A stretch of 64,000 nucleotides of DNA from Kiloniellales bacterium (lineage in GTDB: Bacteria > Pseudomonadota > Alphaproteobacteria > Kiloniellales > JAKSDN01), in contig JBFJPL010000003.1 in the NCBI GenBank assembly GCA_041617155.1, forward strand, positions 19,189 through 83,188. The letters run 5' to 3'. The position numbers and the translations under genes were made by a program. The notes under the pieces are model-generated. The model was not told the DNA's origin and ran no database searches. It saw only the letters and a list, made by a program, of their open reading frames with translations. Below are positions 3,629-57,942 of this stretch, in pieces (within the stretch, counting starts at the first letter, position 1; each line of letters begins with the position of its first letter).

Positions 3629-3644
3629 TGCAATCGCTGTACCA
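3629..3644 (-). promoter_or_regulatory. sigma54-type -24/-12 promoter of flagellin 1
   Basis: The minus strand reads TGGTACAGCGATTGCA against consensus TGGCAC-N5-TTGCW, with correct GG-N10-GC spacing. It lies about 60 nt upstream of ATG 3569. Confidence 0.7.
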
Positions 3645-3719
3645 CAAGAAGTATGCAATTAAAACAGATAGTTAAAGATATCTGGTGAATTTCGTGGCGG
3701 TCATGCTTGCCGGTCGGGA

Positions 3720-3754
3720 GGCAGGCATTGCCGGGACCGATGGCAAAAGTTACC
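3720..3754. promoter_or_regulatory. Candidate enhancer (bEBP/FlbD-type) dyads upstream of the flagellin-1 sigma54 promoter
   Basis: GGCAGGCATTGCC (3720-3732) and GGCAAAAGTTACC (3742-3754) both follow the pattern GGCA-N5-T(G/A)CC. They lie 75-110 bp upstream of the promoter. Confidence 0.5.
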
Positions 3755-4736: not shown

Positions 4737-4752
4737 CGCAATGGCCGTGCCA
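4737..4752 (-). promoter_or_regulatory. sigma54-type -24/-12 promoter of flagellin 2
   Basis: The minus strand reads TGGCACGGCCATTGCG, a near-perfect match with correct spacing. It lies about 75 nt upstream of ATG 4663. Confidence 0.8.
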
Positions 4753-4828
4753 CCCGAGGCGCGGCGGACCGCCCCAGGCGGCCCGCTGGCGCCTATACTT
4801 AATGCCGTTTAACCACGTGCTTCGACCC

Positions 4829-4882
4829 GGCAGAACTTACCGGGTTGCGCGGCAATTCTTGCCCAACGGGGCAGTTGTTGCC
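4829..4882. promoter_or_regulatory. Candidate enhancer dyads upstream of the flagellin-2 sigma54 promoter
   Basis: GGCAGAACTTACC (4829-4841), GGCAATTCTTGCC (4851-4863) and GGCAGTTGTTGCC (4870-4882). They lie 77-130 bp upstream of the promoter. Confidence 0.55.
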
Positions 4883-4917
4883 GGGCTGTCGATCGTTGGA
4901 TTTCGAGGGGGCGCCGA

Positions 4918-5751
4918 TCAGGCGAAGAGGTTGAGCACCGAGCCCGGTTCGACTTCCCGGGGCAGGAGCGTGCTCTCGGCCAGCGAGTCGGTGAGCGCCT
5001 GGGCGGCTTCGAAGGCGAAGGATATATTGGTCAGGATCTGCGCGGTGCGGTCGCGCAGCGCCTGGATCTCGTCGATCTGCTTCTTGCGCTCGGCGATCTC
5101 GATGTCGTCGATCTTGAGCTTGGCCTGGTCCAGGCTGCGGTCCACGGTTTTGATCAGGTTGACCGACAGCGTGTTGTTGATTTCGATGATCGCGAGCGAT
5201 CCGTCGAGGTCGCTCCTGACGGCGTCGATCGCATCCTGCGCGGCCTGAACGTCCGCCGCCGAGGCGAAGTCGTTGGTGACGATGGCCTCGATCGCCGCCA
5301 GGCCGTCGGCCTTGGTCGCCGCCAGCCCGTCCGGCGCGCCCAAGCGGCCGGGGGTGGCGCTCAGCAGCTTGTCCAGCGACTGCAGCACCTCGGCCCGCTT
5401 GCTGTCGAACTCGGCCACGGTCGTGGGATCGGCTAGCGCGCGCAGCTCATCGAGCTGATTCTGCAGGTCCTTCACGGTCAGCCGGTTGGTCTTGACCGTG
5501 GCGCTATAGGCTTTGACCTCCTCGAGTTCGCGTTCCAGGCGGCTTGCCTTGACCCGCAGCAAGGCGGTCTTGCCCTGCCCGAAGTCGGACTCCTGGAATT
5601 CCGCGATCTTCGCATCGAGGCGGGCCAGCTCGACGTTCTGGGCGATGTTGAACTGCAGCTCGAAGTTCGGGCGCGCCGCCGCCTGCGCCAGCCGCACCAG
5701 GGAGGTGGCGATGCTGTTGACGATGGTGTTATTGGTCGGAAACGTCAGCAT
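4918..5751 (-). CDS. Hypothetical coiled-coil protein in the flagellin/hook-associated-protein operon (unknown function)
   Basis: 277 aa, Ala/Leu/Asp/Glu-rich heptad-like sequence with no TM or signal peptide. Sits between flgL (78 nt upstream) and the flagellin-2 control region. The C-terminus ...EPGSVLNLFA resembles the flagellin ends ...SVLALFR / AVLQLFR. I recognise no family. Confidence 0.7.
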   Translation of the reverse strand: MLTFPTNNTIVNSIATSLVRLAQAAARPNFELQFNIAQNVELARLDAKIAEFQESDFGQGKTALLRVKASRLERELEEVKAYSATVKTNRLTVKDLQNQLDELRALADPTTVAEFDSKRAEVLQSLDKLLSATPGRLGAPDGLAATKADGLAAIEAIVTNDFASAADVQAAQDAIDAVRSDLDGSLAIIEINNTLSVNLIKTVDRSLDQAKLKIDDIEIAERKKQIDEIQALRDRTAQILTNISFAFEAAQALTDSLAESTLLPREVEPGSVLNLFA

Positions 5752-5829
5752 GGTCGATCCAACAAATTAGAGCCCGGACCAGTTTACACCGATGCCCGTT
5801 AAGTTCGTCCTAATGGACTAGCTAAACGG

Positions 5830-11668: not shown

Positions 11669-11807
11669 CAGGGTACAGTTTGCCTATTATCACTAATATA
11701 TAGCACATAGCATCATGATGCAAATGTATTAATAAAAACTTTACTGCACACTACTATTCCGATGCCTGGTTTCATCTGGGAAAGCCACACGAATCTGCGT
11801 TTTATGA

Positions 11808-11822
11808 TTAACGGATTGTTAA
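11808..11822. promoter_or_regulatory. CtrA-type box (TTAA-N7-TTAA) upstream of fliX
   Basis: TTAACGGATTGTTAA is a perfect match. It lies 61 nt upstream of the fliX ATG within a roughly 210-bp AT-rich divergent region. Confidence 0.6.
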
Positions 11823-11882
11823 CCCCGGCGCTCCCAGTCTGGTCGATGGATGCGAGCCATGAGCAGGTAGTGAGCAGCTAGA

Positions 11883-12296
11883 ATGAAGATCGATCCTCTT
11901 GCCAAACAGCGCCTGTCACCGACCCGGCGCAGCGAGCGCGCCAAGCAGCCGGAGGCGGGCGGTTTTGCCGAGGAACTGAGCGGCGAGGCCCCGGCCGGCG
12001 GCTCGGTCGGCGGCGCCACGGCGCCCAGTCCGGTCGACGGCCTGCTTGCCCTGCAGGAGGTGTCGGACGGCTTGGCGCGCCATGCCAAGGCGCGGCAGCG
12101 CGGCGAGGCCCTGCTCGAAGAGCTCGATAGACTGCGCCTGGATCTCCTGACCGGGACACTATCCAAGGCCCGGCTGGAGCATCTGGCGGCTTTGACGGCG
12201 GCGCAGCGGGAGCGGATCGATGATCCACACTTGGCGCAGATCATCGAGGAGATCGAGCTGCGGGCGGCGGTCGAACTGGCCAAACTCGACCACTAG
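11883..12296 (+). CDS. fliX: Class II flagellar assembly regulator FliX
   Basis: 137 aa. GLLALQEV...RQRGEALLEELDRLRLDLLTG...DPHLAQIIEEIELRAAVELAKL fits the FliX family pattern. It is divergent from the flgI-containing strand as in Caulobacter, with a perfect TTAA-N7-TTAA box 61 nt upstream. Confidence 0.7.
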   Translation: MKIDPLAKQRLSPTRRSERAKQPEAGGFAEELSGEAPAGGSVGGATAPSPVDGLLALQEVSDGLARHAKARQRGEALLEELDRLRLDLLTGTLSKARLEHLAALTAAQRERIDDPHLAQIIEEIELRAAVELAKLDH

Positions 12297-12400: not shown

Positions 12401-12436
12401 CCGCGACAATCTGGAGGACTCAGGCAGGGGTGAGGC

Positions 12437-12859
12437 ATGGCGAATGGGACTAGGTTAGCGATCGGTTACCGTCCGTCCGACGATGAGCCGTTCATGAATT
12501 CCCGTATGAGGGATTATTTTCGGCAGAAACTGCTCGCCTGGAAGCAGGAACTGCTCGAGGAGTCGACCGAAACGCTCCAGCATCTCCAGGAAGGCGGTCT
12601 GGCCGAGCCGGATATCGCCGACCGGGCCTCGCTGGAGACCGACCGCTCGCTCGAACTGCGCACCCGAGACCGGGAGCGCAAGCTGATTGCCAAGATCGAG
12701 GACGCCCTGCGCCGGATCGACGAGGGCTCCTATGGCTATTGCGAGGAAACCGCCGAGCCGATCAGCCTGAGACGGCTCGAGGCGCGGCCCATCGCGACCC
12801 TCTCGATCGAGGCCCAGGAGCGTCACGAGCGCATGGAGCGCACCCACCGCGACGATTGA
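12437..12859 (+). CDS. dksA: RNA polymerase-binding transcription factor DksA (Cys-poor variant)
   Basis: 140 aa. It carries the coiled-coil tip motif PDIADRASLETDRSLELRTRDRERKLIAKIEDAL (DxxDxA) and YGYCEETAEPISLRRLEARPIATLSIEAQE. Only 1 of the 4 canonical zinc-finger Cys is present. Confidence 0.9.
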   Translation: MANGTRLAIGYRPSDDEPFMNSRMRDYFRQKLLAWKQELLEESTETLQHLQEGGLAEPDIADRASLETDRSLELRTRDRERKLIAKIEDALRRIDEGSYGYCEETAEPISLRRLEARPIATLSIEAQERHERMERTHRDD

Positions 12860-12918: not shown

Positions 12919-13689
12919 CTAGAACGGCCAGAGAATATCGAAGATCTGCTGCCCGTAGCGCGGCTGCTGGAGATCGCTGATCTGGCCGCGTCCGCCGTAG
13001 GCGATGCGCGCCTCGGCGATCTGGTCGAACTGGATCGTGTTGGTCGAGGCGATGTCCTCGGGCCTGATGATGCCGGCCACCTGCAGCTCGCGCATTTCGA
13101 AGTTGACCCGCACCTCCTGGCGCCCGGCGACCACCAGATTGCCGTTGGGCAGCACCTGGATGACCAGGGCGGCGACGCTCAGATCGATGGCTTCGTCGCG
13201 CTGGATGCTGCCGACCCCTTGGGTGCTGCCGGAGCTGTCCAGGTCGATCAGGCTGGTCGGATCGATCGCGGTCGGCAGGATCTGGCTGAGACTAGCCTCG
13301 TAGCCGAGGATCGAGCTGGCCGAGGAGTCCTCCGCCGCGGTCCGGCTGCGGTTGGTCGTGTTGGAGATCGCGGCGCTGTCCTGGATCGAGATGTTGATGG
13401 TTACGATGTCGCCCACCGTGGCTGCGCGCTGGTCCTGCAGGAAATGTTGCGAGCCCGGCCGCCACAGCGAATTGGCCTGGTGCGTGACCAAGGCCGGTGC
13501 CGGCTGCGGTACCTGCACCGGCTGCCGGCCGATGATCCGCTGCGGGTTCTCGATGCCGCTCATCGGCGGCGGCCGGCCGATTTCGGCGATCCGCTGCAGC
13601 GCGTTGCAGGCGCTCAGGGACGCGGCGATCAGCAGGGTTCCGGCCAGGCGGAGCGGGCGGGCGAGGGAGGTGCGATGCTGCGGGGCCAA
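12919..13689 (-). CDS. flgH: Flagellar L-ring lipoprotein
   Basis: 256 aa with a lipobox (LLIAASLSAC). SLWRPGSQHFLQDQRAATVGDIVTINISI... is typical of FlgH. Confidence 0.9.
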   Translation of the reverse strand: MAPQHRTSLARPLRLAGTLLIAASLSACNALQRIAEIGRPPPMSGIENPQRIIGRQPVQVPQPAPALVTHQANSLWRPGSQHFLQDQRAATVGDIVTINISIQDSAAISNTTNRSRTAAEDSSASSILGYEASLSQILPTAIDPTSLIDLDSSGSTQGVGSIQRDEAIDLSVAALVIQVLPNGNLVVAGRQEVRVNFEMRELQVAGIIRPEDIASTNTIQFDQIAEARIAYGGRGQISDLQQPRYGQQIFDILWPF

Positions 13690-13700
13690 GGGAGCCTCCT

Positions 13701-14651
13701 TCAGTTGACGGTCGCGATGGTGGCGGGCAGCACCCGGACGGTACCGGCCCGCACCACCACGCCATTGATCACGGCATTTGACTTGGTGTTCATGACCCGG
13801 ATGACCTGACCGCTGGCACCGTCTTCCAGGGCACGGCCCTGGGCGGTCAGGACCATGCGGTCGGTTTCCAGCCGCAGGATCACCAGGCTCTTGCGGGGCA
13901 CCAGCACGGGTTCCCGCAGGTTGCCGGTGCGGATCGCTTCGCCGGCCCGGATCGGTCGGCGCGGGCTCTTGCCGATCAGACGCTGTGCGTCGAGCACCAC
14001 GTTGCCTGCCAGACGATCGCTGCGTTGGCGCAGCCAGTCGACATCCGCGTGGCTGATGATCTCACCCGGCAAGGCGCGCCGGCGCAGCACCGGAACCTCG
14101 GTCATCTGGACCGCACGACCGGTGACCGTGCCGCGGGCCAGGGGCGCCGCGCCGGCTGGTGCCTGGAGATGGGCCATGAAGCGGCCGCTGGCCGGGTCGT
14201 GGGCGAGGCTGGTCAGGGCCAGGGTCGGCTCGGCGTCGACCGGCAACTCCAGGTGCAGCGTCGGGTTGTCCAGAACCAGCGAGACGTCACCGCTGACGCC
14301 GCGCTCGGCCAAGGCCGCCTGCAGCGCGGCTTTGATGTGCGCGGCGCCGATGACATGGCTGGCGCGGGTCACCACGACACTGTCGAGCGCCGAGGCGGGT
14401 CGCCAGTCGATACCGTAGCCGCTGGCCACGGCGGCGAGCCAGCGGGCGTCCAGCTCTACTCGGCGGCCCGGGGCGGGCGCGCGCGCGACCGCGGTGTCGG
14501 CAGCATCCGTCAGCCCCTCGAACAGGTCGCCCAGGCGCAGGATCGCGCCGTCGATGACGACCGACTTCTTGAGCAGGACCGGCGTCTGGCCGGCCTGGGC
14601 GGGCAGGGCGAGCAGGAGGCCGAAAATCAGGGCCAGGCAGCGGGTTCTCAT
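13701..14651 (-). CDS. flgA: Flagellar P-ring assembly chaperone FlgA
   Basis: 316 aa with a signal peptide. The C-terminal SAF-like region is GEAIRTGNLREPVLVPRKSLVILRLETDRMVLTAQGRALEDGASGQVIRVMNTKSNAVINGVV. Located between flgG and flgH. Confidence 0.8.
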   Translation of the reverse strand: MRTRCLALIFGLLLALPAQAGQTPVLLKKSVVIDGAILRLGDLFEGLTDAADTAVARAPAPGRRVELDARWLAAVASGYGIDWRPASALDSVVVTRASHVIGAAHIKAALQAALAERGVSGDVSLVLDNPTLHLELPVDAEPTLALTSLAHDPASGRFMAHLQAPAGAAPLARGTVTGRAVQMTEVPVLRRRALPGEIISHADVDWLRQRSDRLAGNVVLDAQRLIGKSPRRPIRAGEAIRTGNLREPVLVPRKSLVILRLETDRMVLTAQGRALEDGASGQVIRVMNTKSNAVINGVVVRAGTVRVLPATIATVN

Positions 14652-14678
14652 GGAGTCACCTCGGTTCTATGGCGCCGC

Positions 14679-15464
14679 CTAGCGCAGCTGGGTCACGCTC
14701 GACATCATCTCGTCAGACGCCTGGATCACCTTGGAGTTCATCTCGTAGGCCCGCTGGGCGGTGATCAGGTTGGTGATCTCCGACACCACGTTGACGTTCG
14801 AGGCCTCCAGCGCGCCCTGCTCCATCGAGCCGAAGCCGGTCGAGGCCGGCGTACCGACGGTTGGCGTGCCGGATGCCGGAGTCTCCAGCAGCAGGTTGTC
14901 GCCGATCGGCTCCAGGCCCGCCTGATTGAGGAAGGTGGCCAGTTCGAGCTGGCCGACCTGCTGCGGCGCGACCTGGCCGGCGATGGTCACGAAGACCTGG
15001 CCGCTGGCGTTGATCGTCACCGTGCTGGCGTTGTTCGGAATGGTGATGCCGGGCTGCACGACAAGACCGTCGGGGGTGACCAGGTCGCCGTCCGCCGAGA
15101 GCTGGAATGCGCCGGCGCGGGTGTAGCCGGTCTCTCCGCTCGGCAGCTCGACCTGGAAATAGCCGCGGCCGCTGATCGCCAGGTCGAAGGGGTTGTCGGT
15201 GATGTTCATGCTGCCCTGTTCGGCGATCCGGTAGACCGCGGCCGGCTGCACGCCGAGCCCGAGCTGCACGCCGGCGGGCACGATGGTGCCGGCTTCCGAC
15301 GAGGTCGAGCCGACCCGCAGCTGGTTCTGGTACAGCAGATCCTGAAACTCCGCGCGGCGGCGCTTGAAGCCGGTCGTGTTCATGTTGGCGATGTTGTTCG
15401 AGATGACCTCGACGTTGAGCTGCTGAGCCAGCATGCCGGTCGCGGCGATATCGAGCGATTTCAT
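14679..15464 (-). CDS. flgG: Flagellar distal rod protein
   Basis: 261 aa. MKSLDIAATGMLAQQLNVEVISNNIANMNTTGFKRRRAEFQDLLYQ... and C-terminal ...LITAQRAYEMNSKVIQASDEMMSSVTQLR. Confidence 0.93.
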   Translation of the reverse strand: MKSLDIAATGMLAQQLNVEVISNNIANMNTTGFKRRRAEFQDLLYQNQLRVGSTSSEAGTIVPAGVQLGLGVQPAAVYRIAEQGSMNITDNPFDLAISGRGYFQVELPSGETGYTRAGAFQLSADGDLVTPDGLVVQPGITIPNNASTVTINASGQVFVTIAGQVAPQQVGQLELATFLNQAGLEPIGDNLLLETPASGTPTVGTPASTGFGSMEQGALEASNVNVVSEITNLITAQRAYEMNSKVIQASDEMMSSVTQLR

Positions 15465-15483
15465 GGTACTGCTCCCCGGGTCT

Positions 15484-16209
15484 CTAGCTTCTTGCGGTTG
15501 CCAGGGCGTCGATCGCCCGGCGTTGGCGTTCGTGTTCGTTGTTGGCCAGCTTGGCGGCCGCCTCGTAGCTGCGCACCGTGGCGACCAGCCTGGTCATCTC
15601 GACCACGCCGGCAACGTTGGAGCTCTCCAGCTTGCCTTGCTGGACGTCCGGCTGTTCGACCGGCAGGGCGGCCTGACCGGCGGCGTCATAGAGGCTGTTG
15701 GCCTGCCGCTTCAGTGCCTGCTGGTTATCGAAGCGGACCACCTGGACCCGGCCCAGCTCGCCCTGATCGGTCGAGATCGTGCCGTCACGCGCGACCGCGA
15801 CGGAAAGCGCGTCGACCGGGATGGTAATCGGCGCTCCGCCGTCGTCCAGCAGGGCAAAGCCCTGTGCGCTGACGATCCGGCCGTCGGGGTCGGGGGTGAA
15901 GCCGCCGGCGCGGGTATAGCGTGTGCCTTCCGGCGTCTCGATCGCGAAGTATCCCTCGCCGCGTATTGCCAAGTCGAAGGGGCTGCCGGTTTCGGTCATC
16001 GGCCCGGCCTTCAGGTCGCGGATCGTGGCGATGTCGCGAACGAAGCTGATCTTCTCGCGCGGCTCCGTGCGGGCGAGGTGCTCGACAAAGAGCATGCTCT
16101 CGCCCTTGAATCCGGGCGTGGTCAGGTTGGCCAGGTTGTTGGCCACCATGTCCATCTGGCGCCTGAGCACCATCTGACGCGAGAGTGCGATGTAGCCGGG
16201 ATTTTCCAC
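15484..16209 (-). CDS. flgF: Flagellar proximal rod protein
   Basis: (V)ENPGYIALSRQMVLRRQMDMVANNLANLTTPGFK... is the normal FlgF N-terminus and begins at GTG 16209. The track start 16290 lies upstream of the predicted sigma54 promoter (16268-16283). Confidence 0.85.
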   Translation of the reverse strand: MENPGYIALSRQMVLRRQMDMVANNLANLTTPGFKGESMLFVEHLARTEPREKISFVRDIATIRDLKAGPMTETGSPFDLAIRGEGYFAIETPEGTRYTRAGGFTPDPDGRIVSAQGFALLDDGGAPITIPVDALSVAVARDGTISTDQGELGRVQVVRFDNQQALKRQANSLYDAAGQAALPVEQPDVQQGKLESSNVAGVVEMTRLVATVRSYEAAAKLANNEHERQRRAIDALATARS

Positions 16210-16267
16210 CTGAGCGTCCGCTTCGCTGTGATCTTTCGCGCTGCCACCGGGCAGCACGGCACGGACT

Positions 16268-16283
16268 TGCAGTTTGCATGCCA
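16268..16283 (-). promoter_or_regulatory. sigma54-type -24/-12 promoter of the flgF-flgG-flgA-flgH operon
   Basis: The minus strand reads TGGCATGCAAACTGCA, with GG and GC correctly spaced and two flanking mismatches. It lies about 60 nt upstream of GTG 16209. Confidence 0.65.
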
Positions 16284-16300
16284 GCGGCAAGGGCTCGCAG

Positions 16301-16313
16301 AATCAAAGACTTA
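16301..16313. promoter_or_regulatory. Candidate IHF site between the enhancer dyads and the flgF sigma54 promoter
   Basis: AATCAAAGACTTA matches WATCAANNNNTTR exactly. It sits in an AT-rich spacer between 16283 and 16357. Confidence 0.45.
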
Positions 16314-16356
16314 TCAGTTAGAATATATTAACTAGCGAACTCATATCATCGATTCC

Positions 16357-16383
16357 GGCAGGGCTTGCCCGGCAGTTGTTGCC
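16357..16383. promoter_or_regulatory. Candidate tandem enhancer dyads upstream of the flgF sigma54 promoter
   Basis: GGCAGGGCTTGCC (16357-16369) is immediately followed by GGCAGTTGTTGCC (16371-16383). The 14-mer GGCAGTTGTTGCCG is identical to 4870-4883. Confidence 0.55.
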
Positions 16384-16428
16384 GCAGGCCGCTTCGAGGC
16401 CGCTGCCGGACGCAGTCTCAACCAGATG

Positions 16429-16436
16429 TTAACCAC
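16429..16436. promoter_or_regulatory. CtrA-type half site (TTAACCAC) upstream of fliL
   Basis: It matches the TTAACCAT 8-mer in 7 of 8 positions and lies 57 nt upstream of the fliL ATG. The same 9-mer TTAACCACG occurs at 4809-4817. Confidence 0.4.
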
Positions 16437-16492
16437 GGCAGCGTAGCTTAGAGCCGGTCTAAACCCTTGGGTAACCGTAAAAAGGACTAGGT

Positions 16493-17035
16493 ATGTCGGA
16501 TCAAGCGGCGACCGAAGACATTGGCGGCGGCATGGACGCCGAGTCGAAGCCCGACGCGGGCGGGACGAACGGCAAGTCGATTGTGCTTTTCGTCGTGCTG
16601 CCGATCCTTTTGCTGTTCGGCGCGGTGCTCGGCGCCTACTTCATGGGCATGCTCGACCCGCTCCTGGGCGTACCGCCCAAACAGCCGAAGGCCGAGCAGG
16701 CCGCGGCACCCATGCCCGAGGTGAACCAGTCGGCGGTGTTCTACGATCTGCCGGAAATGCTGGTGAACCTCAACGCCGGCGGACGCAAGGCCTCCTACCT
16801 GAAGATTTCGGTCAGCCTGGAGCTGCAAAGCGAGGCCGCCATGGAGCAGGTCAAGCAGGTGCTGCCGCGCGTCATCGACAACTTCCAGGTCTATCTGCGC
16901 GAGCTGCGGATCGAGGATCTGCGCGGCTCGGCCGGCCTGCAGCGCCTGCGCGAAGAGCTGCTGCTGCGCGTCAACGCCGCGGTCCGGCCGGTCGTGGTCA
17001 AGGACGTGCTGTTCAAGGAAATGCTCGTCCAATAG
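16493..17035 (+). CDS. fliL: Flagellar basal-body-associated protein FliL
   Basis: 180 aa with a single TM. AVFYDLPEMLVNLNAGGRKASYLKISVSLEL...VLFKEMLVQ is typical of FliL. Confidence 0.9.
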   Translation: MSDQAATEDIGGGMDAESKPDAGGTNGKSIVLFVVLPILLLFGAVLGAYFMGMLDPLLGVPPKQPKAEQAAAPMPEVNQSAVFYDLPEMLVNLNAGGRKASYLKISVSLELQSEAAMEQVKQVLPRVIDNFQVYLRELRIEDLRGSAGLQRLREELLLRVNAAVRPVVVKDVLFKEMLVQ

Positions 17036-17078: not shown

Positions 17079-18080
17079 ATGGCTGAACCAGAGGCGGCGA
17101 CGGACAAAGACGCCGGTGGCTCGACCAAGATCCTCAACCAGGCCGAGATCGACAGCCTGCTCGGCGGCCACGACGGCCTGGACGCGCGTTCGGGTATCGC
17201 GGCGATCGTCGATTCGGCGCTCGTCTCCTACGAGCGCCTGCCCATGCTCGAGGTCGTATTCGACCGCCTCGTGCGCATGATGTCGACCTCGCTGCGCAAC
17301 TTCACGTCCGACAACGTCGAGGTCCACCTGGAGTCGATCTCCTCCTCGCGCTTCGGCGACTACCTCGATTCGATTCCTCTGCCCGCCATGCTGACGGTGT
17401 TCAAGGCGGAGGAATGGGACAACTTCGGCCTCATGGCGGTCGACTCCTCGCTGATCTATTCGATTGTCGACGTTCTGTTGGGCGGCCGGCGCGGCTCCGC
17501 CGCCGTACGCATGGAAGGCCGGCCCTACACCACGATCGAGCGCAACCTGGTCGAGCGCATGGTGCACGTCGTCCTGGCCGACCTATCGGCCGCTTTCGAC
17601 CCCTTGTCGCCGGTCACCTTCCGTTTCGAGCGGCTGGAATCCAACCCGCGCTTTGCCACCATTGCTCGGCCGGCCAACGCCACCGTCGTCGCCCAGCTGC
17701 GGGTCGAGATGGAGGATCGTGGCGGCCGCTTCGAGCTGATGCTGCCCTACGCCACCCTGGAGCCGGTCCGCGAGCTCTTGCTGCAGATGTTCATCGGCGA
17801 GAAGTTCGGCCATGACTCCATTTGGGAAAGCCATCTGACCACCGAGCTGTGGCAGACCGAGCTGCCGATCCAGGCGGTGCTCGACGAAGTCGAGGTGCAC
17901 TTGGGCGAAGTCATCGGCTGGACCGAAGGCAGCCGCCTCGAACTCAACTGCGGCCCGAATTCGAAGGTCGAGCTGCGGTGCGGCGACATCGCCATGTTCG
18001 AGGGCCAAATGGGACGAAAGGGATCGAACATCGCAGTGCGGGTCGCCGGCAAGCTGACCGGCAACGGGGAGTCCACCTGA
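17079..18080 (+). CDS. fliM: Flagellar motor switch protein FliM
   Basis: 333 aa. It has the N-terminal CheY-P-binding-type motif ILNQAEIDSLLG and central FliM core similarity (LEVVFDRLVRMMSTSLRNF...). Confidence 0.9.
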   Translation: MAEPEAATDKDAGGSTKILNQAEIDSLLGGHDGLDARSGIAAIVDSALVSYERLPMLEVVFDRLVRMMSTSLRNFTSDNVEVHLESISSSRFGDYLDSIPLPAMLTVFKAEEWDNFGLMAVDSSLIYSIVDVLLGGRRGSAAVRMEGRPYTTIERNLVERMVHVVLADLSAAFDPLSPVTFRFERLESNPRFATIARPANATVVAQLRVEMEDRGGRFELMLPYATLEPVRELLLQMFIGEKFGHDSIWESHLTTELWQTELPIQAVLDEVEVHLGEVIGWTEGSRLELNCGPNSKVELRCGDIAMFEGQMGRKGSNIAVRVAGKLTGNGEST

Positions 18081-25609: not shown

Positions 25610-25846
25610 TCAGTCGGTCGGTTTCTTGCCCTTCTCCTGCTCGGTCACCTGACCTGCCTGCTGGGTCGCGGCGGCCGCCCGGTTTTCGGCCTGTATGCGC
25701 TCGTGGATCTCGCGACGCAGCACGGTGGCGGTCGGCGGAAAGGTAAAGCCCAGTTTGATCGACTTGCCCCGAATGTCGATGACGGTGACTTCGATGTCGT
25801 CGTTTATGATGACTGACTCGCCGATCTTGCGTGTCAGATAGAGCAT
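25610..25846 (-). CDS. csrA: Carbon storage regulator / translational repressor CsrA homolog with a C-terminal extension
   Basis: 78 aa from ATG 25846. MLYLTRKIGESVIINDDIEVTVIDIRGKSIKLGFTFPPTATVLRREIHERI matches the CsrA fold sequence (MLILTRKxGESIxIGDDIxVTVLxIxGxQVRLGIxAP). The 22 upstream codons of the track ORF are not CsrA-like. Confidence 0.85.
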   Translation of the reverse strand: MLYLTRKIGESVIINDDIEVTVIDIRGKSIKLGFTFPPTATVLRREIHERIQAENRAAAATQQAGQVTEQEKGKKPTD

Positions 25847-25912
25847 GAGCTGCTTGCGCCTTTTCCAATTCGGCGGCGCCCCACGGCGCAACCCCCAGCA
25901 TTTATCATGCAA

Positions 25913-25927
25913 TTAAATCACTTTTTA
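25913..25927. promoter_or_regulatory. CtrA-like box (TTAA-N7-TTTA) in the csrA / flgB divergent region
   Basis: TTAAATCACTTTTTA followed by CGG, the same TTAA-N7-TTTACGG arrangement as at 25542. It lies about 95 nt upstream of the flgB ATG. Confidence 0.4.
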
Positions 25928-26019
25928 CGGATCATTAATAGGCCGCGCGTGATAGTGCGCTGGGTCGGTCTGTCGGCACCGACCGATCGAAGCTCGAAAG
26001 ATCGGCCCCGGGAGACCCC

Positions 26020-28378: not shown

Positions 28379-29485
28379 ATGGCAGACGAACGTCCCGACG
28401 AGTCGCAAAAGACCGAGGAGCCGACCCAAAAGCGCCTGCTGGAGGCGCAGCAGAAGGGCCAGGTGGCCAAGTCCCAGGAGGTCGGCCACTGGTTCATGAT
28501 CCTGGCCTTCGCGATCATGGTCGGATTCCTGGCGCCCGGTGTCGCCCGGGACATCGCCGATGCGCTTTACGGCTTGGTCGCGCGGCCCCATGCGATCCGG
28601 GTCGACGGCGCCGGCATCCAGGACCTGCTCGGCGAACTGACGGCCAACCTGGGCCTGGCGCTCGCCGTCCTGGTCCTGCTGGCCATGGTCGCCGCTCTGG
28701 CATCGGGCATGCTGCAGACCGGGTTCATCCTGACCACCGAACCGATCAAGCCCAAACTGGAACGGATCTCGCCGGCCAGCGGATTGAATCGGATGTTCTC
28801 CGCGCGCGCCCTGGTCGAGTTCCTGAAAGGCGTTGCAAAGCTTTCGATCGTCGGCTGCGTCATCGCCTTGTTGCTGTGGCCGGAGCGGCGCCTGATCGCC
28901 GACCTGGTGACCATGGACCTGGTCCAGTTCCTGGCGGTGATCCAATCTCTGGCTTTCCGGGTCCTGCTTGCCGTGTTGGCCGTCATGACGGTGATTGCCG
29001 GACTGGATTTCCTGTTCCAGAAGCAGCAGCACGCCAAACAGATGCGCATGTCGAAGCAGGAAGTGAAGGACGAGTTCAAGCAGACCGAAGGCGATCCCAT
29101 GGTCAAGGCTCGGCTGCGGCAGATTCGCATGGAGCGCGCCCGGCAACGTATGATGGCCGCCGTGCCGGAGGCCGATGTGGTGATCGCCAATCCGACCCAC
29201 TTCGCGGTCGCGCTTGCTTACGAACTCGGCTCCGCCGGGGCGCCGAAGGTGACGGCCAAAGGCGCCGATACGCTTGCCCTGCGCATGCGCGAGCTGGCCG
29301 AGGAGTACGCTGTGCCGGTGGTCGAAAACCCGCCCCTGGCGCGCGCGCTCTACGGCTCGGTCGAGCTCGATCAGGAGATCCCGCCCGAACATTATAAGGC
29401 GGTCGCCGAAATCATCGGGTATGTCATGCGCCTAAAGGGTAAGCTACCCCAGCAGCGGGCCGGCTTGCAGCGGGGCCGTGAGTGA
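28379..29485 (+). CDS. flhB: Flagellar export switch protein FlhB
   Basis: 368 aa. It starts ESQKTEEPTQKRLLEAQQKGQVAKSQEV, has 4 TM segments, and carries the autocleavage motif VVIANPTHFAVAL. Confidence 0.95.
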   Translation: MADERPDESQKTEEPTQKRLLEAQQKGQVAKSQEVGHWFMILAFAIMVGFLAPGVARDIADALYGLVARPHAIRVDGAGIQDLLGELTANLGLALAVLVLLAMVAALASGMLQTGFILTTEPIKPKLERISPASGLNRMFSARALVEFLKGVAKLSIVGCVIALLLWPERRLIADLVTMDLVQFLAVIQSLAFRVLLAVLAVMTVIAGLDFLFQKQQHAKQMRMSKQEVKDEFKQTEGDPMVKARLRQIRMERARQRMMAAVPEADVVIANPTHFAVALAYELGSAGAPKVTAKGADTLALRMRELAEEYAVPVVENPPLARALYGSVELDQEIPPEHYKAVAEIIGYVMRLKGKLPQQRAGLQRGRE

Positions 29486-29566
29486 TGGATAAAGGGGTTC
29501 GCAAATCAGTACCTATCATCCTCCTGTGAGGGTGGGGACTGTTACGCTTGGGAGTGTTTTGACACG

Positions 29567-32050
<2,484 letters not shown>

Positions 32051-57781: not shown

Positions 57782-57942
57782 TGGTCTGATTCAGATCACT
57801 AGGGTCTCGGCGCTGCCCGCAACCGGTTTCCCAAATTCTCAACGCTTTATTAAGATAAAGCTGTATACCTTAAAGTGTAGCGACAGTAGCATAGACCGAA
57901 TCGCAAACGTGATGGTGGCTGATACCCAGGAACGGAGGGGGC

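Follow-up and report, generated by a model that had tools for sequence, protein, structure and literature searches.

The 283 bp gap that separates flgF from fliL in an uncultured Kiloniellales/Rhodospirillales-like bacterium lies between two divergent flagellar operons and raises the question of whether these operons draw upon common control elements or are each served by a promoter of their own. On the minus strand is flgF-flgG-flgA-flgH (assigned by NCBIfam), whose first gene, flgF (15484..16209, minus strand), matches PRK12690/TIGR02490 and encodes 241 aa from a GTG start at 16209. On the plus strand are fliL (16493-17035; NCBIfam PRK12785), with a Shine-Dalgarno AGGA recognizable in the sequence at 16483..16486 (plus strand), and fliM (17079-18080; NCBIfam TIGR01397). 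Here we will refer to the whole 64-kb stretch of DNA analysed as the window. Four motifs had been proposed for the gap from the sequence: a σ54 promoter and an IHF consensus serving flgF, a pair of dyads, and a CtrA half-site serving fliL. All four are present where they were predicted, except that the spacing of the dyads was off by one nucleotide.

Since such motifs are individually weak evidence, their significance comes from conservation among relatives, which we assessed in 78 genomic loci and in 120 metagenomic loci from a motif scan. In 70 of the 78 genomic loci fliL is divergent from flgF. Among cultured relatives, Pelagibius litoralis, Denitrobaculum tricleocarpae and Ferruginivarius sediminum have this architecture. 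Conservation in orthologous intergenic regions had been named beforehand as the test that could refute the original prediction, and on that test each of the four elements came out strongly positive. In an alignment of 14 intergenic regions, the invariant columns fall in the fliL box, the TA of its −10 element, the dyads and the TGGCA..TGC of the flgF promoter, and nowhere else. Likewise, relatives with ~89% FlgF identity carry every element in identical form and have substitutions confined to the stretches between them. We consider it likely that the gap consists of two flagellar promoters of the Caulobacter type, placed back to back and independent of each other.

The proposed −24/−12 promoter of flgF, TGGCATGCAAACTGCA (reverse complement of 16268-16283, minus strand), was borne out. 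It matches 10 of the 12 specified σ54 positions, lies 58 nt before GTG 16209, and has its GG (16282/16281) and GC (16270/16269) doublets 10 nt apart and oriented towards flgF; counting against the σ54 model, its −12 element has CTGCA in place of TTGCA. A TGGCAY-N5-nTGC promoter is found 55-105 nt upstream of flgF in 74 of the 78 genomic loci, and an equivalent σ54 promoter precedes flgF in 79 of 82 metagenomic loci. The pattern TGGYAY-N5-nTGC has four matches in the window, one within an ORF and three that are intergenic and rightly oriented, before flgF, flagellin 1 and flagellin 2. These three are the only intergenic σ54 sites in the window and every one is flagellar; a scan of the window detected no σ54 promoter before flgI, flgK or flgB. 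Given standard σ54 geometry, transcription of flgF-flgG-flgA-flgH from this promoter would be predicted to begin near 16257 (minus strand), 12 nt past the −12 C at 16269, and the flgF leader would be 48 nt long.

Upstream of the flgF promoter lies the putative FlbD-type enhancer, the tandem dyads GGCAGGGCTTGCC-C-GGCAGTTGTTGCC (16357..16383, unstranded). The original prediction had located the two dyads correctly but had described them as abutting; one nucleotide, C16370, separates the first (16357-16369) from the second (16371-16383), and the centre-to-centre distance is 14 bp. In the direction of flgF the pair reads GGCAACAACTGCC-G-GGCAAGCCCTGCC, with the distal dyad beginning 100 nt upstream of TGGCAT. 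Among the 74 loci with a promoter, GGCA-N5-TGCC dyads matching at least 7/8 positions occur ~100 nt upstream of it (−108 to −92) in 62, whereas a control window at the same threshold yields two (2/74). The distance from dyads to promoter is quantised, falling at 99-103, 88-91 and 79 nt, which correspond to helical-turn steps. When metagenomes were scanned blindly for the tandem dyad, flgF was adjacent in 82 of 120 matches, and at least 92 of the 120 copies have a flagellar context.

Within the window itself GGCA-N5-TGCC occurs five times against 2.0 expected, and all five copies are confined to three flagellar intergenic regions, which jointly account for ~1.2% of the window. Besides the flgF/fliL gap, the dyads are found upstream of the promoters of flagellins 1 and 2, the window having no further good σ54 promoter in intergenic DNA. 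The flagellin-1 control region (3629..3754, minus strand) has the σ54 promoter TGGTACAGCGATTGCA at 3629-3644, a dyad at 3720-3732 and a near-dyad at 3742-3754; that of flagellin 2 (4737..4882, minus strand) has the σ54 promoter TGGCACGGCCATTGCG at 4737-4752, dyads at 4851-4863 and 4870-4882 and a near-dyad at 4829-4841. Measured to the promoters, the dyads stand at 100 nt for flgF and at 88-130 nt for the two flagellins. As had been noted from the sequence, the second dyad of the gap is part of a 14-mer, GGCAGTTGTTGCCG, which recurs at 4870-4883 before flagellin 2. We rejected a duplication as the origin of this 14-mer because conservation from genus to genus is also seen in the AAGAAC/AACAAC spacer of the distal dyad; a pair of strong sites for a single protein would account for the identity.

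The dyads, 100 bp upstream of the promoter, would be bound by an enhancer-binding ATPase, for which FlbD, controlled by FliX, is the most probable candidate. The window contains fliX (11874..12296, plus strand; NCBIfam FliX models, E = 6e-34), whose product in Caulobacter partners FlbD and regulates it (PMC3096577). Both FlbD and FliX are present in Rhodospirillales (PMC2890560, PMC3096577), and in R. centenum mutations in FlbD abolish the polar flagellum (PMC2890560). No flbD, rpoN, ctrA, chpT or ihfA/B gene was found within the 64-kb window, and we assume that FlbD, RpoN, CtrA and IHF are present in the genome. The absence of flbD from the window would also suit a different σ54 activator at the dyads, for example one like NtrC/NtrX or FleQ. 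We think this very unlikely, as the motif is almost exclusively flagellar (5/5 copies in the window and at least 92/120 in the metagenomic set), the only known role of the fliX gene found in the cluster is FlbD control, and FlbD is the known activator of the polar flagellum in this group (PMC2890560). With FlbD as the probable activator, its contact with the closed σ54 holoenzyme complex would drive open-complex formation at the flgF promoter.

Such contact would be helped by IHF, which would bend the DNA between activator and promoter. An IHF core consensus, AATCAAAGACTTA, lies at 16301-16313, between the dyads and the promoter; on the minus strand it reads TAAGTCTTTGATT, an instance of YAANNNNTTGATW, and it sits 30 nt upstream of TGGCAT. 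The claim that this is an exact match to the IHF core WATCAANNNNTTR held. By itself the pattern is not significant, since 14 of 100 shuffles gave at least one match (one observed in the window, 0.17 expected). We scored it by offset in a promoter-anchored alignment of the 74 loci that have the promoter, at a threshold of 8/9 and from −34 to −29. The YAANNNNTTGATW core is kept 30-31 nt upstream of the σ54 promoter in 47 of the 74 at 8/9 or better, against none (0/74) in a control window. None of the three nearest genomic relatives (L001-L003) has an IHF match. An A/T-rich tract 5′ of the WATCAA core is common at IHF sites and is not obligatory. The core in the window is without this usual tract, 16284-16300 being G+C-rich and the A/T-rich DNA lying on the other side; the 5′ tract is present in more distant relatives.

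That A+T-rich DNA forms a spacer between the IHF core and the dyads (16314..16350, unstranded), and within it is a σ70-like match, ATGATA-16-TATATT (16349 to 16322, minus strand). It is conceivable that flgF is also, or even mainly, transcribed from this sequence and that the σ54 promoter is secondary, given that the match agrees with 9 of 12 consensus positions where shuffles of the region would give 0.2 such matches. We give this reading scant probability. DNA that is locally A+T-rich yields such matches easily, the spacer sequence is unconserved among relatives and is G+C-rich in L001-L003, L009 and L080, and it is the σ54 promoter that is conserved, in 74 of 78 loci. What is kept of the spacer is its length, which is phased even though its sequence is not conserved, and for the expression of flgF we retain the σ54 promoter with its putative upstream enhancer.

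On the fliL side, the half-site TTAACCAC (16429-16436) was correctly positioned by the original prediction, its end lying 57 nt before the fliL ATG at 16493, but it does not stand alone: it is the proximal half of TCAA-N7-TTAA (16418-16432). The conserved full box around it leads us to reject an isolated half-site. The full CtrA-type box, TCAACCAGATGTTAA plus CCAC, covers 16418..16436 (plus strand) and is predicted to occupy −38 to −24 of the fliL promoter. In 61 of the 70 divergent loci the box has the form TCAAY-N6-TTAACCA (in its fuller consensus TCAAY-N2-sTT-N-TTAACCAwc) and is followed by a −10 TA; in these 61 loci a c-TA-N3-T motif lies 11 nt past the box, and its TA is invariant in alignment A2. 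In the window this predicted −10 is TAGCTT (16444..16449, plus strand), with A16445 at −11 and a start that we place near G16456. Relative to the predicted start, the box overlaps the −35 region, with its proximal element at about −27, and the A is at −11. The motif TTAACCAY occurs three times in the window where 0.36 occurrences are expected.

On this layout fliL-fliM would be transcribed from a σ70-type promoter that lacks a normal −35, TCAA-N7-TTAA(CCAC) at about −38 to −24 taking its place next to the −10 TAGCTT, and the box would most probably be bound by phosphorylated CtrA, fed by CckA, which would recruit RNA polymerase. CckA is the kinase that heads the CtrA phosphorelay, and cckA is in the window (29567..32050, plus strand; NCBIfam CckA, E = 5e-228). 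The box departs from known CtrA sites by one position either way, TCAA-N7-TTAA agreeing with 7/8 of TTAA-N7-TTAA and TTAACCAC with 7/8 of the ungapped CtrA site TTAACCAT. Its distal half is TCAA, and never the canonical TTAA, in all 61 loci across the whole order; judging by these alignments, TCAA appears to be a conserved departure from the CtrA consensus with no sign of decay. This constancy, and the absence of ctrA from the window, could indicate that TCAAY-N6-TTAACCA is read by some other regulator or is an unusual −35 for an alternative σ factor. We regard that as quite improbable: the box forms a direct repeat with a period of 11 bp and contains TTAACCA(T/C), the known ungapped CtrA motif, and its position relative to the −10 is that of mapped CtrA-activated flagellar promoters (PMC6180460). 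Moreover, cckA belongs to the same cluster and a perfect TTAA-N7-TTAA lies upstream of fliX. CtrA thus remains our favoured candidate for the fliL box.

Do the two promoters depend on one another? That the operons share 283 bp is true physically, but there is no sign of shared elements. From one locus to another the distance between the dyads and the fliL box runs from 38 to 260 bp and is unphased, while the distance between the dyads and the σ54 promoter is fixed. The variability of the former argues that the two promoters stand side by side as separate modules, and the spacing data give no support to an enhancer that is shared or bidirectional. The same data bear on a dual-purpose scheme, in which the activator bound to the dyads would turn on flgF and shut off fliLM and so effect the switch from class II to class III. 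There is some precedent in Caulobacter, where FlbD acts as a repressor of class II promoters, of fliF by way of ftr4 (PMC3930126), and is found by ChIP-seq at class II promoters (PMC4083442). In favour of the scheme, the dyads of the gap are centred ~86 bp before the predicted start of fliL; against it, they do not overlap the core promoter of fliL. The site of fliF repression in Caulobacter reportedly overlaps the transcription start. The known case of fliF repression uses a site upstream of fliF (PMC3930126). With the dyads unphased to the fliL box and fixed to the σ54 promoter, we hold the dual-purpose scheme to be unlikely. A more elaborate conjecture, which we find rather more doubtful, is that the fliL box may be something other than a usual CtrA site, with TCAA having been selected as deliberately weak or co-factor-dependent so as to time fliLM, or else marking a lineage-specific regulator; with phased FlbD-type dyads that might repress fliLM in addition, the 283 bp would be a self-contained switch from class II to class III.

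As two separate modules, the gap is the Caulobacter class II/class III scheme in an uncultured bacterium of the Kiloniellales/Rhodospirillales type, strongly conserved but ordinary, and it reveals no new mechanism. Caulobacter presumably also has the divergent gene order fliLM / flgFG-flgA(flaD)-flgH. As in C. crescentus, the rod and ring genes and the flagellins have σ54 −24/−12 promoters (class III/IV), with dyad enhancer sites ~100 bp away and an IHF site between, fliX is in the cluster, and fliLM has a CtrA-type box overlapping the −35 (class II) (PMC3930126, PMC3096577, PMC7064773, PMC6180460). By analogy with that system flgFGAH would be expressed late and fliLM early, with FlbD and IHF acting on the former and CtrA on the latter. 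By their symmetry, their position and their recurrence at several flagellar operons the dyads are putative ftr-type sites. Several features set the present host, a member of another order, apart from Caulobacter: a mere 14 bp lies between the centres of its two dyads, the CtrA-type box has TCAA as its distal half, no σ54 promoter is detectable in the window before flgI or flgK, and the −24 element is TGGCAY, where that of Caulobacter is TGGCCC.

The divergent fla2 promoters of Rhodobacter sphaeroides (fliL2p-fliF2p and flgB2p-fliI2p) offer a second comparison. There too CtrA activates the fliL promoter from a site near −35, the right element is at −27/−28, the A at −11 is essential and invariant, and the promoter on the other side is flagellar as well (PMC6180460). 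In R. sphaeroides, however, the partner is CtrA-dependent as well, a single CtrA site may be shared, and RpoN and FlbD are uninvolved (PMC6180460), whereas in our host the partner is predicted to be σ54- and enhancer-dependent and the modules are separate. The flgF side also resembles classical enhancer-IHF-σ54 promoters. In these (NifA at nifH, NtrC at glnHp2) activator sites ~100 bp upstream serve a −24/−12 promoter, with an IHF bend at about −30 to −60 and helical-phase dependence. It differs from NifA/nifH and NtrC/glnHp2 in serving a flagellar regulon and in having an activator that probably answers, through FliX, to flagellar assembly and not to phosphorylation. The Caulobacter scheme, with CtrA acting on early flagellar genes and σ54, FlbD/FliX and IHF on those of rod, ring and filament, appears to reach well past Caulobacterales, into Kiloniellales, Rhodospirillales and related marine alphaproteobacteria, with a promoter geometry that is nearly identical across these groups down to the helical-turn quantisation of the enhancer distance. 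For annotation, the dyad, the IHF offset and the fliL box provide motif models of the flagellar regulon in metagenome-assembled genomes.

Finally, the start of flgF, which the original prediction had moved to GTG 16209, is established by several kinds of evidence. Seventeen FlgF homologues, with lengths of 241-242 aa, start at MENPGYIALSRQ, and the alignment to the NCBIfam FlgF profile begins at residue 1 of the protein so defined. A Shine-Dalgarno-like CGGACG (16215..16220, minus strand) places GGA 7 nt before the GTG, and GGACG precedes the flgF start codon in L001-L003, L005, L010, L012, L013, L145 and L183 as well. TTG 16290 was rejected as the start: it is upstream of the promoter, and in a close relative an indel of 1 nt between 16290 and 16257 puts it out of frame. 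At its 5′ end the predicted leader carries a palindrome, GCTGCC-cggt-GGCAGC (16240..16255, minus strand), and we rejected an RNA element in the gap, as the 9-bp hairpin predicted there is no better than those of shuffled sequences (z-score −1.1) and Rfam is empty in the gap; the one Rfam hit in the window is a tRNA elsewhere. GTG 16257 was rejected too, since it coincides with the predicted transcription start and homologue N-termini give it no support. It is the start in the 257-aa public model of the identical protein (P0001), which is 16 aa too long, and the public gene call for flgF is corrected to GTG 16209.

Genes in the window were identified with NCBIfam, and the 283-bp gap at 16210–16492 separates flgH, flgA, flgG and flgF on the minus strand (12919–16209) from fliL (16493–17035) and fliM (17079–18080) on the plus strand. 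Upstream of the region lie three flagellin genes followed by flgL, flgK and flgI, all on the minus strand, with fliX (11874–12296) and dksA (12434–12859) both on the plus strand; motor genes, fliOP, csrA, flgBC-fliE, fliR-flhB and cckA lie downstream. The cckA start (29567) is 81 nt past the flhB stop on the same strand (29483–29567), so the CtrA-feeding kinase is embedded at the end of the fliR-flhB export operon. NCBIfam identification found no flbD, rpoN, ctrA or ihf gene in the 64-kb window. The closest FlgF proteins belong to uncultured Kiloniellales/Rhodospirillales MAGs (74% identity), while identity to Pelagibius and Denitrobaculum is about 55%.

Checked against the sequence, every element quoted in the original prediction was found where it had been placed. 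The σ54 −24/−12 promoter TGGCATGCAAACTGCA occupies 16268–16283 (reverse complement, minus strand), the IHF consensus AATCAAAGACTTA 16301–16313, and the two dyads 16357–16369 (GGCAGGGCTTGCC) and 16371–16383 (GGCAGTTGTTGCC). Measured from TGGCAT, the IHF core begins 30 nt upstream and the distal dyad 100 nt upstream; on the opposite side TTAACCAC occupies 16429–16436, its end 57 nt upstream of the fliL ATG (16493). The 14-mer GGCAGTTGTTGCCG from the second dyad does recur at 4870–4883. The sole correction to the quoted elements is that the dyads do not abut, as one base (C16370) lies between them. All five GGCA-N5-TGCC copies in the window (2.0 expected) fall within three flagellar intergenic regions that jointly make up ~1.2% of it, and a fairly strict σ54 pattern has just three intergenic sites in the 64 kb, at flgF and two flagellin genes, each correctly oriented. 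TTAACCAY occurs three times (0.36 expected). The single IHF match (0.17 expected) is not significant on its own, and its core has no 5′ A/T tract. A σ70-like hexamer pair lies within a non-conserved A+T-rich spacer.

The cross-genome alignment suggested with the original prediction found the σ54 promoter, IHF core, dyads and fliL box conserved in related loci. A scan that took one genome per species gave 80 loci, 78 with usable upstream sequence, and the divergent fliLM/flgFG arrangement is kept in 70 of these 78. A σ54 promoter (TGGYAY-N5-nTGC) lies 55–105 nt before flgF in 74 of the 78. Anchored on this promoter, the IHF core YAANNNNTTGATW matches at ≥8/9 positions at offset −31/−30 in 47 of 74 loci versus 0 of 74 in a control window, and the GGCA-N5-TGCC dyads match at ≥7/8 positions at about −100 in 62 of 74 versus 2 of 74 (consensus cGGCAAaaCCTGCC-s-GGCAAAGCCTGCC). 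The layout in the window is exactly this promoter-anchored layout. When 14 intergenic regions were aligned, the fliL box, the −10 TA, the dyads and TGGCA..TGC were the only places with invariant columns; in two metagenomic relatives (~89% FlgF identity) the elements are identical except for TGGCAT to TGGCAC, and substitutions sit between elements. The IHF match is absent in the three nearest genomic relatives (L001–L003).

The distance from distal dyad start to promoter in the genomic set is 99–103 nt in 18 loci, 89–90 nt in four and 79 nt in one, the shorter-spacing loci including those lacking an IHF match (L001–L003 and a further locus, L080). A blind scan of metagenome contigs with the tandem pattern GGCAANNNCTGCCNGGCAANNNCTGCC returned at least 120 stretches, whose neighbors were identified with a query set comprising only flagellar proteins from the window. 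Among the 120 matches listed, flgF was the immediate neighbor, transcribed away from the motif, in 82, fliL or fliM was near with flgF lost at the contig end in nine, a flagellin gene was near in one, the motif was at a contig edge in 11, and 17 had no match to the window-derived query set. A σ54 promoter follows the dyads in 79 of these 82 listed flgF-adjacent loci, at 99–103 nt (50), 88–91 nt (25), 79 nt (two), 70 nt (one) or 113 nt (one). Steps of ~10.5 bp are what is required of an activator that faces polymerase across a DNA loop. The blind adjacency to flgF and the helical-step distances argue that the dyad motif is a flagellar, flgF-linked enhancer, one that is widespread in alphaproteobacteria. 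The dyad-to-fliL-box distance runs from 38 to 260 bp without periodicity, which points to dyads that belong to the flgF promoter and to flgF and fliL promoters that are juxtaposed modules. It is possible, by analogy with fliF/ftr4, that the dyad-bound activator also represses fliLM, but this variable spacing gives that idea no support. Five metagenome contigs (L099, L109, L159, L162 and L181) carry the same tandem dyads ~105 nt upstream of a cGGCCC-N5-TTGC promoter, whose cGGCCC we take to be a Caulobacter-style −24 element; the following gene, with a product beginning MSNPITNRPISLPF, is probably another regulon member in a different alphaproteobacterial lineage.

On the fliL side, TTAACCAC is present as predicted; rather than a half-site, it forms the proximal portion of a longer conserved box. 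In the direction of fliL, tt-TCAAY-N2-sTT-N-TTAACCAwc-N4-c-TA-N3-T occurs in 61 of 70 divergent loci, the window copy being TCAACCAGATGTTAACCAC (16418–16436) followed by TAGCTT (16444–16449). With the A of TA taken as −11, the proximal TTAA spans −27 to −24 and the distal TCAA spans −38 to −35. The predicted fliL promoter thereby has the geometry of CtrA-activated flagellar promoters in Rhodobacter sphaeroides, where 5′ RACE and mutagenesis defined a right element at −27/−28, a site near −35 and an invariant A at −11, and TTAACCAT is a known ungapped CtrA motif (PMC6180460). The cckA gene lies within the same gene cluster as the box. A notable departure is that none of the 61 loci has TTAA as its distal half and every one has TCAA there; recognition of the box by something other than CtrA is possible but less probable. 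Elsewhere, at 11808–11822, a full CtrA-type box that is a perfect palindrome, TTAACGGATTGTTAA, sits 60 nt before a fliX ATG at 11883, in the divergent gap between a FlaG-like gene/flgI operon (minus) and fliX (plus) and beside a very A+T-rich stretch (11685–11760); in Caulobacter, fliX is among the early genes that depend on CtrA (PMC3930126). The window's only other TYAA-N7-TTAA match, TCAACGCTTTATTAA (57839–57853, between mreB and mreC), may be a CtrA site or a chance occurrence.

Relocation of the flgF start to GTG 16209 was correct. Seventeen FlgF homologues (61–88% identity, nearly all 241–242 aa) align from MENPGYIALSRQ, the NCBIfam FlgF profile alignment begins at residue 1 of the GTG-16209 product, and both the window and relatives have a GGA motif 7 nt upstream of the start. 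TTG 16290, the start of the longest ORF, is upstream of the promoter, and among relatives that share 89% FlgF identity a 1-nt indel cuts it off from the flgF frame. A public model (P0001, 257 aa) of the identical protein begins at GTG 16257, a position that is also the predicted transcription start and that homologues do not support. The public call for an 88% relative (P0002) likewise starts at the equivalent GTG, both 16 codons too far upstream, and the error is systematic in the clade. Just past the predicted transcription start comes a palindrome, GCTGCC-CGGT-GGCAGC (16240–16255). It reads either as an inside-out TGCC-N4-GGCA or as an RNA hairpin of 9 bp at the 5′ terminus, the fold of which does not stand out from shuffled sequences (z = −1.1). 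Leaders of relatives show loose repeats of CGGC and of CTGCC-like words.

The conserved, positioned elements thus support, with these refinements, the original reading of flgFGAH as σ54/enhancer type and fliLM as CtrA type, and a Caulobacter-type scheme is the model they best support. By analogy, CtrA~P, fed by CckA, would activate a σ70-type fliLM promoter (predicted start ~16456, plus) from the box overlapping −35. After the early structure has formed, FliX would release or stimulate FlbD, which would bind the tandem dyads, 100 bp away on the upstream side of the σ54 promoter; with IHF presumably bending the intervening DNA, the activator ATPase would open the σ54 complex and flgFGAH would be transcribed (predicted start ~16257, minus). 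The flagellin promoters share these dyads and may be activated in the same way. The analysis establishes the elements themselves with their conservation, spacing and phasing, as well as the gene content and the flgF start codon; the binding proteins and temporal order are assigned from the literature on this scheme (PMC3930126, PMC3096577, PMC7064773, PMC4083442). Rhodospirillales have both FlbD and FliX, and R. centenum loses its polar flagellum when FlbD is mutated (PMC2890560, PMC3096577).

In the arrangement of its elements, the region has the architecture of Caulobacter class II and class III flagellar promoters. The divergent order fliLM/flgFG-flgA-flgH is, we assume, also that of Caulobacter, and the layout fits classical enhancer-IHF-σ54 promoters as well. 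Minor differences from Caulobacter are the −24 element TGGCAY, flgF dyads 14 bp apart center to center (about two helical turns at the flagellin genes), the TCAA half-site in the fliL box, and the lack of a detectable σ54 promoter ahead of flgI and flgK in the window. As none was detected on the flgI side, control of flgI may differ from that in Caulobacter. This is a known architecture newly seen in an unstudied lineage, unsurprising to a specialist and of use for annotation and comparative work on flagellar hierarchies.

At flagellin-1 (3629–3754) the dyads lie 88 and 110 nt upstream of TGGYAC and at flagellin-2 (4737–4882) 89, 111 and 130 nt upstream, spaced by about two helical turns versus the 14-bp tandem at flgF; flagellin 3 (4918–5766), only 63 bp from flgL, has no promoter of its own. 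A second TTAACCAC copy (4809–4816, plus), between the flagellin-2 dyads and σ54 promoter, faces away from any plus-strand gene and may be chance, part of a bend/IHF-like site, or a CtrA input at a flagellin gene. A csrA homologue (25610–25941) diverges from flgB across a gap of only ~29 bp; in other bacteria CsrA is known to regulate flagellin post-transcriptionally. The minus-strand gene that directly follows flagellin 1 (718–2676) encodes a TPR and glycosyltransferase family 41 protein (Pfam PF13844, E = 1e-24) with a domain composition resembling that of the Caulobacter flagellin glycosyltransferase FlmG.
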